A DNA stretch of 64,000 nt from an uncultured Nitrospiraceae bacterium (GCA_964586075.1 CAZPGZ010000017.1:755-64754); one strand, 5' to 3'; shown: positions 2,828 through 41,395, counted from the stretch's first letter. Program-made: numbers and translations. Notes: generated by a model from the sequence alone, not told the origin.

Positions 2828-4003
2828 CTATCGTGTAGAATAGTAGGCTCTTTTTGCTTCTTCCATAATCTGTTTCAGCGGGAGCTGTTCGCTTTCCGCG
2901 ATTTTTTTGCAGTCCTCATATTCAGGGGTCACCGTGAAAACTTCCTTGCCCTGTTTGCTCACTTTCAGCCTGATTCTGCCGTAGCATGTGTCCACTTCCG
3001 TGATTTCACGGAGCAGCTTTTTTCTGCGCACATCCTGGAGGCGGACGCCGATGCTCGTGGTTTCGCGAAACAGGGTATCAAGCATGGTGTCGACTTTTTC
3101 CTTGTCCGTCAGCACGGATAGCAGCACCGCCGGCCTTCCTTTTTTCATGGTGATGGGCGTGAAGTATACGTCTTGCGCCCCCTGCCGCATAAGTTTTTCA
3201 GCCACGTAGTCGTAAATCTGGGGGTTCATATCGTCGATATTGGTCTCGATGACAACCGACATGTCTTCTTCCCAGGAGGATGCGGCGGATTCACCAATCA
3301 TAAGCCGCAGGACATTCGGTGTGCCGGGGAAATCCTGGTCTCCTGCTCCGTAGGCTATCCGCTCAATATTCATGGCCGGCATGCGGCCGAAGGAGGCGCC
3401 GAGCGTGCTGATGATCGCCGCGCCGGTGGGGGTCGTAAGCTCAAATTTTGTCGAAGATTCATAAAAGGGGATTCCCCGCAGCATCTCAGCGGTTGCCGGG
3501 GCGGGTATGGGCAGAATGCCGTGAGCGGTTTTCACTGTTCCGGAACCCACGTTGACCGTAGAAGCGATGATATGCGATATGCCCAGAAGTTCAAGCCCTA
3601 TAACCGAGCCCACTATATCAACAATAGAGTCGACCGCACCGACCTCATGGAAATGAACGTCCTCTATCGTTGTGCCATGCACTTTGGCTTCCGCCTCCGC
3701 CAGACGGGTAAATATCAGTCCGCTTTTTTGTTTGACCGGCGCTGAGAGAGAAGAACTGCCGATAATTTTCAGAATGTCGGAAAGGTGGCGATGTTCGTGT
3801 GTAAGATGATGAATATCGACTCGCACTTTCGTCGCCGCAATGCCGGAGCGGGTGACTTTTTCAGATGTTATTTTGTATCCTGGAACGCTCAGTTTCTGAA
3901 GCTCCGAGCGAAGTGTGTTGATGTCCATTCCCGCGTCCACAAGGGCGCCGAGGGTCATATCGCCGGATATCCCGGAAAAACAGTCAAAATAGGCAATGGT
4001 CAT
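2828..4003 (-). CDS. larC: Nickel-pincer cofactor biosynthesis protein LarC (DUF111, nickel insertase)
   Basis: 391 aa; N-terminus MTIAYFDCFSGISGDM characteristic of LarC/DUF111. Confidence 0.8.
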   Translation of the reverse strand: MTIAYFDCFSGISGDMTLGALVDAGMDINTLRSELQKLSVPGYKITSEKVTRSGIAATKVRVDIHHLTHEHRHLSDILKIIGSSSLSAPVKQKSGLIFTRLAEAEAKVHGTTIEDVHFHEVGAVDSIVDIVGSVIGLELLGISHIIASTVNVGSGTVKTAHGILPIPAPATAEMLRGIPFYESSTKFELTTPTGAAIISTLGASFGRMPAMNIERIAYGAGDQDFPGTPNVLRLMIGESAASSWEEDMSVVIETNIDDMNPQIYDYVAEKLMRQGAQDVYFTPITMKKGRPAVLLSVLTDKEKVDTMLDTLFRETTSIGVRLQDVRRKKLLREITEVDTCYGRIRLKVSKQGKEVFTVTPEYEDCKKIAESEQLPLKQIMEEAKRAYYSTR

Positions 4004-7106: not shown

Positions 7107-8804
7107 ATGCATGCATGGCACGGAAAAATACTTTATGTCGATCTCTCTGCAAACAAGATCCGGACCGAGAGTTTAGACGCGGAGGCCCTTTCTTCTCATA
7201 TCGGCGGCAGGGGGCTCGGTATGGCTATGATGAAGGATTACTTCAGCCTCGACCCCTTTGACAACAGCATGCCTCTTCTTTTTATGAACGGGCCACTGTG
7301 CGGCACCCCTGCGCCCGCCTCGTCTCGATTGGCCGTGGTCTCGCGGTCGCCTCTTACCGGAACAATAACCGATTCATCGGTGGGCGGTACCTTTCCACTC
7401 CGTTTGAAGGCAGCCGGCTACGATGGTCTCTGCATTACCGGCAGGGCTCCGTCTCCGGTCTATCTTCAGATCGTTGAGGACAAGGTCGAGATCCACGACG
7501 CGTCGTACCTTTGGGGCAAGGGGTGTCTGGAAACAAACAGGCTTCTTGACTCCGCCGGTTGCGTGGCCTGCATCGGCCCCGCGGGAGAAAACCGAGTCCG
7601 GTTCGCCAATATCATGATCGGCGGCGCGAATTCCGCTGGACGGGGCGGACTCGGCGCCGTAATGGGATCAAAGAACCTCAAAGCGATCGTGCTTAATGGA
7701 ACCCGAAAAGTGTCTGTCGCGGATTCAGCCGCATTTAAAAAGGCGCAGGAAGATGTAATGCGGCTTCTGAGAGCATCACCGGCGGTCATGGGGGAACTGG
7801 GGTTGGGTGAATATGGGACCGCGATGCTCGTAGATATCGTGGGCCAGCGCAAGATGGCTCCAACGGAAAACTTCCAGAAGACTTTTTTCCCGCAGGCGGC
7901 CGCGTATTCCGGTCCGAGTCTCAAAAAAGAATTCGGCTATAAAAAGCACGGATGTGTTGTATGTCCCATCCAGTGTAAAAAGATGCTCTCCTGCGGCAGG
8001 CCTCTGCCGGAATATGAGACCCTGTCTCATTTCGGCGCCTTGAACGCAAACGCCGACGCAGAATCCATTGTAGAGGCAAATTTGCTGTGCAACAATCTTG
8101 GAATGGACACCATCTCCGCGGCGGCGACGTTCGCGGCATTTGGAGAAGTACGGGGCGCGTTTCTTTCCGGAAACGAGATACTCGAAATGCTCCTGCGGAC
8201 CGCGAAGCGCGAGGGTGAGGGAGACCGGCTGGCGGAAGGCTCAAAAAGGCTGTGTGCAGACTTGGGAAAACCGCATTGTTCCATGAGCGTGAAGGGGCTG
8301 GAGCTTCCCGCCTACGATCCGCGCGGTTCCTACGGCATTGCGCTAGCCTATGCCACGTCCACGCGCGGCGGCTGCCATTTGCGCGCGTATCCGATCAGCC
8401 AGGAAATTCTGCGCAAACCCGTGGCGGTGGACCGCTTCAGCTTTGACGGAAAGGCCCGGATGATCAAAATCGCGGAGGACAACAATGCGATGGTGGACTC
8501 CCTCTGCGTGTGCGCATTCGCTTTTCTCGGCGCATCCATTGAGGAATATGCTCATTTGCTGGCCGCAGCAACGGGGCTGCCGTTCTCGGGACAGGGTCTT
8601 ATGAAAATCGGTGAGAAAATCGTCATTACCGAACGAACATACAACACTAGGAACGGATTCACCAAAAAAGATGACTTTCTGCCTGAACGGTTTTATACCG
8701 AGGCAGGTTCATCGGGAGAAGGGATCGAAATTCCGCCGATCGACAAAAAACGGTTCAGTGAAGAGCTGGATAAATACTATCGAATTCGGGGAGAGAATCC
8801 ATGA
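7107..8804 (+). CDS. aor: Tungsten-containing aldehyde:ferredoxin oxidoreductase (AOR family)
   Basis: N-terminus WHGKILYVDLS...E..GGRGLG typical of AOR; ~565 aa; start trimmed to internal ATG. Confidence 0.82.
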   Translation: MHAWHGKILYVDLSANKIRTESLDAEALSSHIGGRGLGMAMMKDYFSLDPFDNSMPLLFMNGPLCGTPAPASSRLAVVSRSPLTGTITDSSVGGTFPLRLKAAGYDGLCITGRAPSPVYLQIVEDKVEIHDASYLWGKGCLETNRLLDSAGCVACIGPAGENRVRFANIMIGGANSAGRGGLGAVMGSKNLKAIVLNGTRKVSVADSAAFKKAQEDVMRLLRASPAVMGELGLGEYGTAMLVDIVGQRKMAPTENFQKTFFPQAAAYSGPSLKKEFGYKKHGCVVCPIQCKKMLSCGRPLPEYETLSHFGALNANADAESIVEANLLCNNLGMDTISAAATFAAFGEVRGAFLSGNEILEMLLRTAKREGEGDRLAEGSKRLCADLGKPHCSMSVKGLELPAYDPRGSYGIALAYATSTRGGCHLRAYPISQEILRKPVAVDRFSFDGKARMIKIAEDNNAMVDSLCVCAFAFLGASIEEYAHLLAAATGLPFSGQGLMKIGEKIVITERTYNTRNGFTKKDDFLPERFYTEAGSSGEGIEIPPIDKKRFSEELDKYYRIRGENP

Positions 8805-29074: not shown

Positions 29075-30634
29075 TTACTTCGCATACTCCACATATCTGC
29101 TTTCCCGCACTACGGTTACCTTGATCTGGCCGGGGTAGGAAAGTTCCTGCTCGATTTTCTTGGCAATATCGCGGGAGAGCTGGGCCGAATGAGCATCTGA
29201 AAGGTCCTCCGGTTTTACAATAATCCTGATTTCCCGTCCCGCCTGAATGGCATAGGATTTTTCTACACCCTTAAAGGTGTTTGCCGTCTGTTCCAGCTGT
29301 TCCAGCCGCTTTAGGTAGCTCTCCAGTGTCTCGCGCCGGACGCCGGGTCTGCCTGCCGAGAGAGCATCTGCTGCGGCAACCAGCACGGATTCAACGCTGC
29401 TCGGTTCCCCTTCGCCGTGATGCGTCATAATGGTGTTGATTACTTTTGGAGATTCACCATATTTTTTGGCGATATCAGCGCCGATCTGAGGATGTGTTCC
29501 CTCCACCTCGTGGTCCACAGCCTTGCCCAGATCGTGGAGCAGGCCTGCGCGGCGCGCCAGCTTTTGGTCGACGCCGCATTCCGCCGCCATAATGCCGGCG
29601 AAGTAGGCGACCTCTCGTGCGTGCATGAGCACGTTCTGGCCGTAGCTTGTCCGGTATTTGAGTCTGCCGATGAGCTTGATGATTTCCGGATGCATATTGT
29701 GGATGCCGAGGTCGAAGGCCGCTTTTTCACCCTCTTCCTTCATGGCAATATCCAGGTCTTTTTTGACTTTTTCCGCGATTTCTTCTATGCGGGCAGGGTG
29801 GATCCGCCCGTCGTGAATAAGCCGCTCGATGGTCAGGCGGGCGATTTCTCTCCGGAGCGGGTCATAACAGGAAAGAATGACCGCCTCGGGTGTATCATCG
29901 ATGATCAGGTCGATCCCGGTTGCGGCTTCAAGGGCCCGGATATTGCGTCCTTCCCGACCGATGATTCTTCCTTTCATTTCATCGTTCGGCAGGTTCACAA
30001 CGGATACCGTTGCTTCCGCGACATAGTCGCTTGCGTAGCGTTGGATGGCAAGGCTGATAATATTTTTAGCCTTTTTATCGGCTTCTTCTTTCGCTTCATC
30101 CTCGATCCGTTTGATGGTTTTTGCCGCCTCGTATTTGGCTTCATCTTCCATGGAAAGCATAAGCTGTCGCTTTGCTTCTTCGGCGGTCATACTCGCTATT
30201 TTTTCGAGCATAAGACGCTGTTCATGCAGTCCCTTTTCGAAACGTTCTTCCGTTTCTGCTACGATTTTTTCCTTCGCTGTAAGCTCTCGTTCGCGACGGC
30301 TGGTGTCCGACTCCCTTTTTTCAATCGTATCGAACTTCTTTTCGATAATTTCTTCCCGCTGAGCAAGTCGTCGCTCCTGGTTCTGGAGCTCTTGCCGTTT
30401 ATCGCGATTTTCCTTTTCAAAGTCAGCCCGCGCCTGGTAGAGTTTGTCTTTAACCTCAAGTACGGCTTCCTTGCGTTTTGTCTCGGCCTCGCGTTCCGCC
30501 GTCGAAATAATTTTTGCCGCTTCTGCCTCCGCGTCCCTGATTTTTGATGCCGCCGCCCGTCCCTTGATCATAAGGCCGAGGCCGAATCCTACGGTAAGTC
30601 CGGCTAATGCAAGTAAAATATAACTTTCAATCAT
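29075..30634 (-). CDS. rny: Ribonuclease Y
   Basis: N-terminal TM helix, coiled-coil, KH domain ([15 protein letters not shown]) and HD domain (LHDLGKA); start trimmed to MIESYIL. Confidence 0.88.
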
Positions 30635-31970
30635 GTTTTTCCTCCTGGTACCTCTTCTGCAACCCGGCAAGGCGCTCCTTGATTCTCTTTTCTTCGCCTT
30701 GCTCCGTGGGTCGATAGTATTCCCGCTTCTGCGGCAGGTAGTCTTGGGCGACATAGTGGCCCGGATAATCGTGCGGGTACCGGTAGCCTTTGCCCCGGCC
30801 GAGCCGGGCCGCTCCTTTGTAATGCGAATCTTTGAGATGGTCCGGCACCGCCAACAAGGTTCCCGCTTCCAAATCCTTCATAGCTGCTTTGATGCCGAGG
30901 CAGGCGGCATTGCTTTTAGGTGCTGCAGCGATATAAACAGCAGCCTGCGCAAGCGACAGTGCTCCCTCGGGCATTCCTATGCGTTCAACCGCCTGGTATG
31001 CCGCTGTGGCGACAAGGAGTGCCCTCGGGTCCGCATTTCCTACGTCTTCGCTCGCAGCAATCACGATTCTGCGGGCAATGAACAGCGGGTCTTCGCCGGC
31101 ATATATCATTTTTGCCATCCAATAAAGTGCTGCCTGCGGGTCGCTTCCGCGCATGCTTTTGATAAATGCGGAGATAGTATCATAGTGCTCGTCTTCATCG
31201 TAAACCAGCGCTTTTTTCTGGATGGATTCTTCCGCCGTTTGTAGATCAAGCAGGATATTGCCGTCCGAAGCCGGTGTTGTGGAAAGTACGCCGAGCTCGA
31301 GAGCATTCAGAGCACGTCGGGCGTCCCCGTTGGATTTTGCAACGATAAGATCGAGTGCTTCAGGCGTCAGGGTTACGGGCAGGGTGCCAAAACCCCGTTC
31401 CTTGTCTGCAAGAGCCCTGAGAAGCAAAGCTTTGATATCATCATTTTTGAGCGGTTTGAATTCGAAAATCTGAGAACGGGAAGAAAGTGCAGGGATGATG
31501 GCAAAAAATGGATTTTGCGTTGAGGCTCCCACAAGGGTAACGGTCCCCTGTTCTACATCAGGAAGAAGCGCGTCCTGCTGCACCCGCGTGAAACGATGTA
31601 TTTCATCGATGAACAGTATGGTTTTCGTGCCGTTCTGCGCACGTTCGTTTTCGGCTTCCAGGGTGACTTTTCGTATATCAGCAATGCCTGCTGTTACCGC
31701 GTTGAGGGATACAAAGCGGGCCTGGCTGCGCTCGGCAATCAGGTGCGCAAATGCGGTTTTTCCCACGCCCGGAGGCCCGAACAGAATAATCGACACGAAA
31801 CGGTCTGCTTCGATGGCCCGGCGCAGGAGCTTGCCCGGTGCGAGAATGTGCTCTTGCCCCATGAATTCGGAGAAATCGCGGGGCCGCATTCTCCACGCAA
31901 GCGGTGCATCAGCGGGGCGGGACGAGGCAAAGTCAGCCGTTAATTGTTTTTTGGGGTTCTTGAGGCCCAA
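30627..31970 (-). CDS. rarA: Replication-associated recombination protein A (AAA+ ATPase)
   Basis: Walker A GPPGVGKT, MgsA/RarA family length and C-terminal domain. Confidence 0.88.
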
Positions 31971-32607
31971 TGTGTTTACTTCAGGAGGATGCAGGGTGGC
32001 TTGTGATGGTCAGGAAACCGAACCAGAGCAGGACAACACCGTACGTGGGATATCAAACATCAAGTGGTTTGCAGATATTTCAGGAACAGCACATTGACAA
32101 CAGCTGCTGTCAAAATCCAACACAGGAAAACTATATTAGTACTGGCTGGTCTGTCCTCTAGGTTTTGTTGCAGTTTATATCTGCAAAATATCTCCATGGT
32201 CTCCGAGTGTTGCATTACTGGTAAAATCTTCTTGCGGTACTGTTAAACACTCACTGCTTTGAAGATTCGTATTCTTCCGGTTGCCTTCCGTGTATTACGT
32301 TTATACTGAATGCTATCACAAGCGCCGGAGCCCTTACATCCTGCCCCTTTCTTTATATGCGCTGATCAACGATTAAAAAATAATTATGATGCCGTTTTGA
32401 AAGGTTATTGAAATCCCCCGCATTTGCCGTGCAGACATTCTTGATTCCTGGTATAAACCAGGTGGGTGCCATGTCGAAAAGTTTAGGCTTCCCAGTCTTG
32501 CCTGGGCATGCACACCCTTTCCGTATGATGGCTCCCGTTATTTTTTATTCACGAGGAACAAGATCTATCTATCACGCGCAAAGCAGGGGGAAATATATCT
32601 TTTACGT

Positions 32608-32638
32608 ATTATATACCAGAATCACACAGAAATGGCAA
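32608..32638 (-). promoter_or_regulatory. Near-consensus sigma70 promoter (TTGCCA-17-TATATA/TATAAT) inside 800-bp ORF-free region
   Basis: Minus-strand TTGCCA and TATATAAT hexamers with 17-19 nt spacing; fires toward rarA through about 630 nt lacking any credible ORF. Confidence 0.45.
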
Positions 32639-32786
32639 GGGGAAAAAAGGAATACATTCCTAGGCTAGATGTAAAAAACGTTTAATTTCAATTAATTATC
32701 GCATATTGTACGTGGGCAATCCAAAAAGGGTAGCTTCTTAAGAAAATATGTTTTCGGGAAAAAATTCAGTGAAAGGCAAAGATTTT

Positions 32787-33071
32787 TTATTTGTCATTAT
32801 CAATTTGTTCGGTAAGATTCAGAAGTCGTTTTGCAGCCGTATCTGTCGTTTCCTCCAGAGCACTGAGTTGATCGCGAAGGCGATATAGTTCGTCAGTAAT
32901 GGTAAGTGCAGTCAGAATGGCCACGCGAAGCGGGTCTACAGTGCCCGTTCCTTTTTGCACATCCTTCATTTTGTCATTCAGGAACGAGGCCAGCTCACGG
33001 ATATACTCCGGATTGTTCTGGCCTTTAATGCTATATGTCTGGCCAAATATCTCAACCTGCACACTCTCCAT
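32787..33071 (-). CDS. zapA: Cell division protein ZapA
   Basis: 94 aa; VEIFGQTYSIKG..NPEYIRELASFLNDKM typical ZapA. Confidence 0.85.
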   Translation of the reverse strand: MESVQVEIFGQTYSIKGQNNPEYIRELASFLNDKMKDVQKGTGTVDPLRVAILTALTITDELYRLRDQLSALEETTDTAAKRLLNLTEQIDNDK

Positions 33072-41165: not shown

Positions 41166-41241
41166 TGGTGGTCCCAACGGGAATCGAACCCGTGTCTCCG
41201 GCGTGAGAGGCCAGCGTCCTAGGCCGCTAGACGATGGGACC
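41166..41241 (-). tRNA. tRNA-Glu (anticodon CUC)
   Basis: Cloverleaf: GGTCCCA acceptor, anticodon loop CTCTCAC, TTCGATT T-loop, encoded CCA. Confidence 0.85.
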
Positions 41242-41302: not shown

Positions 41303-41376
41303 ATGGTTGGGGGAGGAGGATTCGAACCCCCGTAAACAGGTTCAGAGCCTGTCGTCCTACCACTGGACGATCCCCC
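41303..41376 (-). tRNA. tRNA-Gln (anticodon CUG)
   Basis: Cloverleaf with U1:A72, anticodon loop CTCTGAA, TTCGAAT T-loop, encoded CCA. Confidence 0.85.
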
Positions 41377-41395
41377 AGGGTGAATTCAGATTTAG

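Follow-up and report, generated by a model that had tools for sequence, protein, structure and literature searches.

The 64,000-nt stretch of DNA analysed here, from an uncultured Nitrospiraceae bacterium (GCA_964586075.1 CAZPGZ010000017.1:755-64754, hereafter the 64-kb window), contains an interval between zapA and rarA, at positions 31971-32786, whose two flanking genes are both encoded on the minus strand. This interval harbours a gene for 6S RNA (ssrS), which follows zapA on the same strand and is separated from rarA by a spacer of about 440 nt. A preliminary description made from the sequence had depicted an ORF-free gap (ORF, open reading frame) with a near-consensus promoter and a small hairpin, occupying the position in which ssrS lies downstream of zapA in E. 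coli, and had proposed a 6S-like non-coding RNA, to be checked by an Rfam scan and by conservation and covariation in relatives. All four of the described elements, i.e., the gap, the promoter, the hairpin and the E. coli gene order, were found where they had been placed. There is no credible ORF between rarA and zapA: the largest one, of 86 aa (32408..32668), is located on the plus strand, antisense to the 6S gene, and none of five small ORFs of the interval gave a Pfam match at E<=1. Of the roughly 630 nt that lie between the promoter and rarA, the 6S gene accounts for 182 nt and the spacer (32410-31971) for the remaining 440 nt or so. We consider it very likely that the interval is the ssrS locus of a Nitrospirota bacterium plus a conserved non-coding segment before rarA, which is probably the long leader of that gene.

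The identification of the 6S gene itself is virtually certain. The Rfam scan returned a match to RF00013 on the minus strand, from 32592 to 32411, with a score of 97.1 bits versus a gathering score of 46.4 and an E-value of 3e-18 (64-kb window), spanning the whole of the model (1-187 of 187 positions), and this was the only 6S match in the window. The match lies on the strand that the preliminary description had predicted and begins about 18 nt past the -10 element of the promoter. This promoter consists of a -35 element TTGCCA (32638-32633), a 17-nt spacer ending in TGg, and a -10 element TATATA (32615-32610), which together with the end of the spacer forms an extended -10 element TGgTATATA (32618-32610); its placement coincides exactly with the one given beforehand. 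Judging from spacing only, the transcription start is inferred to lie around 32603, some 10 nt upstream of the Rfam match. The 6S promoter escaped a simple promoter scan, which accepts only T as the sixth base of the -10 element, and a pattern search combined with conservation was used instead. The pattern TTGCCA-N14-TGNTATATA was found once in the 64-kb window when up to one mismatch was allowed, with 0.02 occurrences expected from shuffles. Moreover, the promoter is present at the same alignment position in all 51 non-redundant relatives (51/51), and no other sigma-70-like site between zapA and rarA is positionally conserved in the relatives' alignment.

The predicted RNA folds as expected of its family. 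The 193-nt transcript predicted from the promoter exhibited a minimum free energy (MFE) of -76.6 kcal/mol (z = -6.8 versus dinucleotide shuffles), and the Rfam-derived structure and the MFE fold concur in a 182-nt rod composed of a closing stem, a central bubble and an apical stem. Across 79 distinct relatives, 90.2% of the cells at paired positions were able to pair, versus at most 52.6% when the partners were slid, and 20 pairs were changed on both sides versus 9.6 expected, a count reached in 0 of 500 shuffles. The body of the gene showed 80-99% conservation per 20-nt window, and the G.U to A.C ratio at its pairs, which served as the control for the strand test described below, was 310:96. 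The region is kept in relatives and the 6S structure covaries. The small hairpin of the preliminary description, CCTGG-TTTATA-CCAGG, corresponds to a conserved stem on the 3' side of the central bubble (32462..32447, minus strand). In the 79 sequences, 98.5% of the cells of this stem were paired and no compensatory changes occurred in it; the loop is variable and the stem is not.

Promoter mimicry, sequestration of the RNA polymerase holoenzyme and release by synthesis of a product RNA (pRNA) are established for the 6S RNAs of E. coli and B. subtilis. Because of its family membership, the same function can be proposed for the present RNA: its rod with a central bubble would mimic an open promoter and bind the housekeeping RNA polymerase holoenzyme, and release would occur when the polymerase copies a short pRNA from the 6S template. 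A candidate for this template is CUUGUUCCUCGU (32562-32551), at the 5' edge of the central bubble, which is near-invariant in the clade and aligns with the E. coli-type template segment of the Rfam consensus. The pRNA copied from it would read 5'-ACGAGGAACAAG, with GG at positions 5/6, and GG at pRNA positions 4-6 has been described as a conserved 6S feature (PMC8414754). The gene is an ordinary member of a well-known family, detectable by a standard Rfam scan, and the main result is accordingly a routine annotation: a canonical 6S gene accounts for an intergenic region that had no annotation in a Nitrospirota genome. The coordinates of the features discussed here and below are collected in Table 1.

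Table 1. Features of the zapA-rarA interval and its flanking genes (positions in the 64-kb window).
Feature	Position	Strand	Basis and remarks
zapA (94 aa)	32787..33071	minus	ORF; upstream neighbour of the 6S gene, same strand
ssrS promoter, sigma-70-type	32610..32638	minus	sequence reading; conserved in relatives
ssrS, 6S RNA gene, 182 nt	32411..32592	minus	Rfam RF00013 match
Candidate pRNA template CUUGUUCCUCGU	32551..32562	minus	5' edge of central bubble; alignment to Rfam consensus template segment
Hairpin CCUGG-UUUAUA-CCAGG	32447..32462	minus	3' side of 6S central bubble; stem conserved in relatives
AT-rich linker	32364..32410	minus	follows 6S 3' end; low conservation; 39-85 nt in relatives
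H1, near-invariant hairpin	32321..32363	minus	outer AGCGC/GCGCU, 32363-32359 with 32325-32321; inner GGGGC/GCUCC, 32347-32343 with 32331-32327; purine-rich loop
P1, 5' strand CUUGUGAUAGCA	32311..32322	minus	in the window CUUGUGAU (32322-32315) pairs with 32007-32000
Conserved block 2	32163..32242	minus	70-76% column conservation in 51 relatives; includes CAUGGGGAU (CAUGGAGAU in the window) and AUACAUAUA
P2, 5' strand ACCAGUAAUGCAACA (clade consensus GCCAGCAGGGUAACA)	32208..32222	minus	pairs with 32038-32022
P2, 3' strand UGUUGUCCUGCUCUGGU	32022..32038	minus	same evidence as P2 5' strand
P1, 3' strand AUCACAAG (32007-32000)	32000..32011	minus	some 30 nt before the start codon of rarA
Pyrimidine box CCUCCUGAAGUAA	31976..31988	minus	conserved in alignment, just upstream of rarA start; resembles anti-Shine-Dalgarno
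rarA (447 aa)	30627..31970	minus	ORF; UUG start 31970-31968; followed by rny (RNase Y)

The arrangement of the locus is shared by its relatives, whose loci are cited below by L numbers. A RarA-based genome scan placed the source organism in the Nitrospirota, with L001 and L002 as the closest genomes (RarA about 80% identical), and the 6S gene occupies the same place in both of them (97 and 95 bits) as well as in Leptospirillia and Nitrospira genomes (72 and 63 bits); overall, the RF00013 scores of relatives ranged from 63 to 108 bits. A metagenome scan with the invariant 6S core yielded 89 loci. The order ftsY-zapA-6S-rarA-rny was observed in about 90 metagenome relatives, wherever the contig was long enough, with zapA detected by tblastn in nearly all clade relatives. 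The order 6S-rarA-rny was also found in Leptospirillia and Nitrospira, and 6S transcripts have been reported in Leptospirillum, another member of the Nitrospirota (bioRxiv 10.1101/538918). Furthermore, rarA is immediately preceded by 6S, in the same orientation, in Omnitrophota (L004, 1214-1440; L006, 3612-3769) and in Alicyclobacillus (L054, 3512-3694). In a Thermoanaerobacterales genome 6S is located 2 kb upstream of rarA, and in Fictibacillus it is located downstream, on the opposite strand (L013, 1869-2052; L016, 7474-7654). The linkage of 6S and rarA thus spans several phyla. Within the searchable literature, plausibly only a paper on Lactobacillales and a preprint on Streptococcus mutans small RNAs bear on 6S and rarA together.

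The spacer that separates the 6S gene from rarA is 415-497 nt long in 50 of the 51 non-redundant relatives. In L094 it reaches 653 nt (oriented locus 7712-8364) through an insertion of about 200 nt. Conservation is patchy, with blocks at 32362-32283 and 32242-32163 showing 70-81% and poorly conserved stretches around them. No Rfam match was obtained inside the spacer (32410-31971) of the window at E<=10; the few weak matches that this threshold admits are located in the neighbouring coding sequences or towards the zapA side of the interval, with scores far below gathering. Likewise, no Rfam match other than 6S was found at E<=1 in the loci of seven relatives, and the 440-nt spacer could not be assigned to any leader or riboswitch family of Rfam 15.

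The spacers were aligned with L-INS-i, and gap-rich columns were removed before analysis with RNAalifold, for which two trimmed alignments were used independently. Both alignments yielded the same architecture, consisting of a hairpin H1 and a long-range helix P1 within which lie a local hairpin P1a, the long helix P2 and a further helix, P3; the domain closed by P1 spans about 320 nt. In 50 relatives, 96-97% of the cells of H1, represented as AGCGC...GGAGC-loop-GCUCC-G-GCGCU in this alignment-derived architecture, were paired, and one of its inner pairs varies among GC, GU and AU; all 10 of its pairs form in the window. P1, recovered on each of the two independent alignments, was 88-93% paired and displayed compensatory changes in L123 (G:C to A:U) and in L107 and L124 (U:A to A:U). 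Its pairs comprised 56 G.U versus 17 A.C, a ratio of about 3:1 that resembles the one of the 6S control, and this excess places the spacer structure on the rarA-sense strand. As for P2, 11 of its 12 pairs form in the window. Covarying pairs were 287-522 (AU15/GC13/GU9/UA2), 290-519 (AU24/GC10) and 297-509 (UA15/CG14/UG8). P3 joins the G-run of CAUGGGGAU (32195-32192) to a C-run at 32050-32047; it was 94.5% paired, with one pair appearing as GC27/GU12/AU7.

Considering the 52 spacer pairs together in 50 sequences, 84.9% of the cells were paired, versus at most 45% with slid partners, and a hand-drawn subset of the pairs behaved similarly. Changes on both sides affected 31 pairs versus 21.9+-2.3 in shuffles, a value attained in 0 of 500. 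In an alignment-free test, the duplex formed by the 5' strand of each sequence with its own 3' strand was compared with the duplexes formed with the 3' strands of other sequences; this self versus non-self comparison gave z-scores of -4.5 for P1, -5.8 for P2 and -8.5 for P1a, and pairs of control regions ranged from +2.5 to -2.3. Several observations weigh against a structured spacer. An all-against-all column covariation scan peaked at 1.44 versus 1.69 for a parallel-stack null, and RNAalifold applied to the raw, gappy alignment of 603 columns produced only a few pairs in the H1 area. The mean folding-energy z-score of the spacer with respect to shuffles was only modestly negative, at -1.35 in 50 relatives (-2.7 in the window), and the antisense strand gave an equal value. 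P1a and the innermost helices form poorly in the window's own sequence, where H1, P1 and P2 do form; P3 failed the G.U/A.C strand test in its first register; and the helices were partly derived from the same sequences that were scored, which inflates the slid-partner control. As the all-column scan did not exceed its null, the case for structure relies on the targeted and algorithm-derived helices and on the self versus non-self test. Overall, this evidence is mixed, and on balance favourable to the spacer being a structured RNA. For P3, a register shifted by one base, which pairs better than the first, is tentatively proposed.

The preliminary description had offered a long structured leader of rarA as an alternative to a non-coding RNA gene. 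The leader part of this proposal appears to be partly borne out by a conserved non-coding segment of about 440 nt with helices, and the two options are not mutually exclusive, with the 6S gene filling 182 of the roughly 630 nt. A signature 13-mer of the H1 region, GCGCTTGTGATAG, was found once in 61 clade loci, no non-clade locus contains it, and inspection of the shorter spacers of Leptospirillia and Nitrospira (L021 and L008) revealed no counterpart of the spacer domain. Since this 13-mer is absent from other lineages and no counterpart was seen in Leptospirillia and Nitrospira, the element is clade-specific, and the spacer is a plausible candidate for a new cis-acting RNA element.

Some further features of the H1 region were recorded. 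A direct repeat, (G)UGU(G/A)AU, stands on either side of H1 (32364-32371 and 32315-32322, minus strand), and AUCACA of the P1 3' strand could pair with either copy, so that H1 would come to lie either within the closed domain or external to it; the upstream copy is the one that matches the P1 3' strand better in some relatives (e.g., L109). Pairing of the H1 loop with the CCUCC box that precedes the rarA start was considered and rejected: its self versus non-self z-score was -2.6, but controls reached -2.3. In the Leptospirillia locus L021, positions 3815-3830 (GGGAGCGGCAA) exactly reproduce the 5' half of the inner stem of H1, plus the loop, as present in L002; this may be a chance match or a remnant of H1.

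The start of rarA exhibits unusual features as well. UUG is the start codon in about 53 or more of 59 relatives, and synonymous-type variation begins at this codon. None of the sequences GGAG, GAGG or AGGA is present at -20..-4 of rarA in any of the 59 relatives (0/59), i.e., there is no Shine-Dalgarno sequence, whereas the neighbouring rny, HD-domain gene and ymdB do carry one. The likely ATG of rny, at 30634, is preceded by AGGAGG and lies in an 8-nt overlap with the rarA stop (ATGATTGA); this overlap suggests that translation would be coupled within a rarA-rny-ymdB operon. The longest rny ORF, with its start at 30754, is probably over-extended by 40 codons, as the matches of relatives often begin near residue 39-41. 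Taken together, the UUG start, the lack of a Shine-Dalgarno sequence and the conserved pyrimidine box suggest that translation of rarA, and by coupling that of RNase Y, may be under tight, structure-dependent control. Elsewhere in the window, the Rfam scan detected two tRNA genes on the minus strand, at 41169-41241 and 41307-41377 (62 and 66 bits).

Other explanations of the spacer were weighed against the structured leader. The spacer is non-coding. A small-protein gene, or a decayed gene such as the one for 5-formyltetrahydrofolate cyclo-ligase (fau) that occupies the equivalent place after ssrS in E. coli, could account for the slightly greater length of the stop-free stretches compared with mononucleotide shuffles (mean 88 versus 74 codons), but no reading frame is conserved among the spacers, the longest open stretch lying on different strands, in different frames and at different places from one relative to another. 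Furthermore, the power of substitutions at period 3 was 0.3, versus 472 for the first 441 nt of rarA as a coding control, frame-breaking indels interrupt the spacer, the conserved ATG is AAG in several relatives, and in a pseudogene neither length nor motifs would have been preserved through about 50 diverged lineages. In view of the inconsistent frames, the lack of periodicity and the lack of Pfam matches, a coding or pseudogene origin was ruled out as exceedingly improbable. Conservation at the DNA level, with the inverted repeat TTGTGATAG...CTATCACAA and other blocks acting as operators or with a weak internal rarA promoter, would fit the P1 arms being mostly conserved rather than variable, and also the antisense strand folding about as stably as the sense strand. 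In addition, TGTGA resembles a CRP/FNR-type half-site, and a promoter-like site with TT[G/A]CCA, a spacer of 16-18 nt and GAnnAT (-10 near 32200-32209) is present in 25 of the 51 relatives. However, the excess of G.U over A.C in P1, as in the 6S control, is expected of pairing in a sense RNA and not of DNA repeats, and compensatory double changes were found in P1, P2 and P1a. The internal promoter, for its part, agrees with the consensus at only about 8 of 12 positions, is absent in half of the relatives and overlaps the covarying P2 strand; being the best candidate and weak, with none conserved upstream of H1, it was discarded. We thus regard a purely DNA-level explanation as improbable.

The main rival concerns how the spacer is transcribed. 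According to this alternative, 6S would end at its closing stem and a U-tract, and the spacer and rarA would be transcribed from their own promoter in the AT-rich linker (32410-32365), as a leader or a second small RNA uncoupled from 6S. In most relatives the closing stem of 6S is immediately succeeded by 4-7 consecutive U (columns 196-206 of alignment A4), which speaks for this alternative and against read-through, as such a U-tract could act as a terminator, in which case the spacer and rarA would need a separate promoter. In the window (32405-32411), however, this run is reduced to UUU, and the stretch from the 6S gene to rarA has no predicted intrinsic terminator on the minus strand; thus, read-through past 6S may differ between lineages. 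The linker does contain scattered promoter-like matches, in 8-12 of the 51 relatives per 10-nt bin, and the 6S RNA of Lactobacillales is thought to be monocistronic (PMC8414754). On the other hand, no positionally conserved -35/-10 pair anchored on H1 was detected, little information is contained between -45 and -14, and the conserved GUGUAAUC does not carry the A that is critical at position 2 of a -10 element. In the Omnitrophota locus L004, moreover, rarA begins only about 40-55 nt after the 3' end of 6S, which is too short a gap for a separate promoter. We consider such a separate transcript possible, though on the unlikely side. Read-through from the 6S promoter, by which the spacer would constitute a co-transcribed 5' leader of rarA-rny, is favoured because that promoter is the only universally conserved one, because no terminator is predicted between 6S and rarA in the window, because the E. 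coli 6S-protein bicistron provides a precedent, and because the L004 gap leaves no room for a separate promoter. From these sequence features, we give this co-transcription about an even chance of being correct.

Under read-through, the ssrS promoter would drive synthesis of 6S and then continue into a rarA-rny(-ymdB) message, and 6S would be cut out of the longer transcript by processing, following the logic of the E. coli ssrS-ygfA bicistron. The leader of about 440 nt, comprising the linker, H1 and the P1-closed domain, would then set the levels of rarA and RNase Y. A more far-reaching version, that a previously undescribed, clade-specific element made of H1 and the approximately 320-nt P1-closed domain physically couples 6S transcription to rarA-rny expression, is speculative and rather doubtful. 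By way of example, RNase Y could cleave the leader, thereby releasing 6S and feeding back on its own synthesis; alternatively, the leader could gate translation from the UUG of rarA by way of different base pairings in which the CCUCC box takes part. The segment is of interest for its setting: long, conserved and helix-bearing, it matches no known RNA family, and the gene after it, which lacks a ribosome-binding site and has a weak start codon, is succeeded by that for RNase Y. If the segment were regulatory, it would represent a new cis-acting RNA through which a global regulator of transcription is connected with functions in DNA repair and RNA decay.

Among known systems, the 5' untranslated region (UTR) of E. 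coli rne (RF00040) offers an analogy for the spacer only. Both would be conserved, structured leaders of several hundred nucleotides, placed before an operon that contains the main decay-initiating endoribonuclease, but the spacer matches RF00040 neither in sequence nor in structure, the enzyme is RNase Y and not RNase E, and rarA is interposed between the leader and rny. An rne-like autoregulation at the present locus would be pure conjecture.

The closest parallel to the 6S gene is E. coli ssrS, which belongs to the same Rfam family, is located directly downstream of zapA on the same strand and is likewise preceded by a sigma-70-type promoter. The annotation of E. coli K-12, with zapA, ssrS and fau (ygfA) in this order on one strand, bears out the gene order given in the preliminary description. 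A blastn comparison of the 6S gene with E. coli genomes revealed no nucleotide similarity, as expected at such a distance. In both organisms a protein gene follows 6S on the same strand, and in E. coli this gene, ygfA, is transcribed along with 6S (PMC2848244). The next gene here, however, is rarA and not that of a folate enzyme, and the gap is a structured one of about 440 nt versus about 75 nt in E. coli. The other parallel lies in the Firmicutes: rarA flanks 6S in nearly all species of Lactobacillales, and the 6S-1 gene of B. subtilis is also located near rarA (PMC8414754). In lactic acid bacteria, rarA is upstream of 6S, which is regarded as a monocistronic gene that has a terminator of its own (PMC8414754), whereas here 6S is upstream of rarA; in B. 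subtilis, rarA is on the strand opposite to 6S, whereas here both are on the same strand, without a separate terminator hairpin. In summary, the locus joins both classic 6S neighbourhoods, with zapA as in E. coli and rarA as in the Firmicutes.

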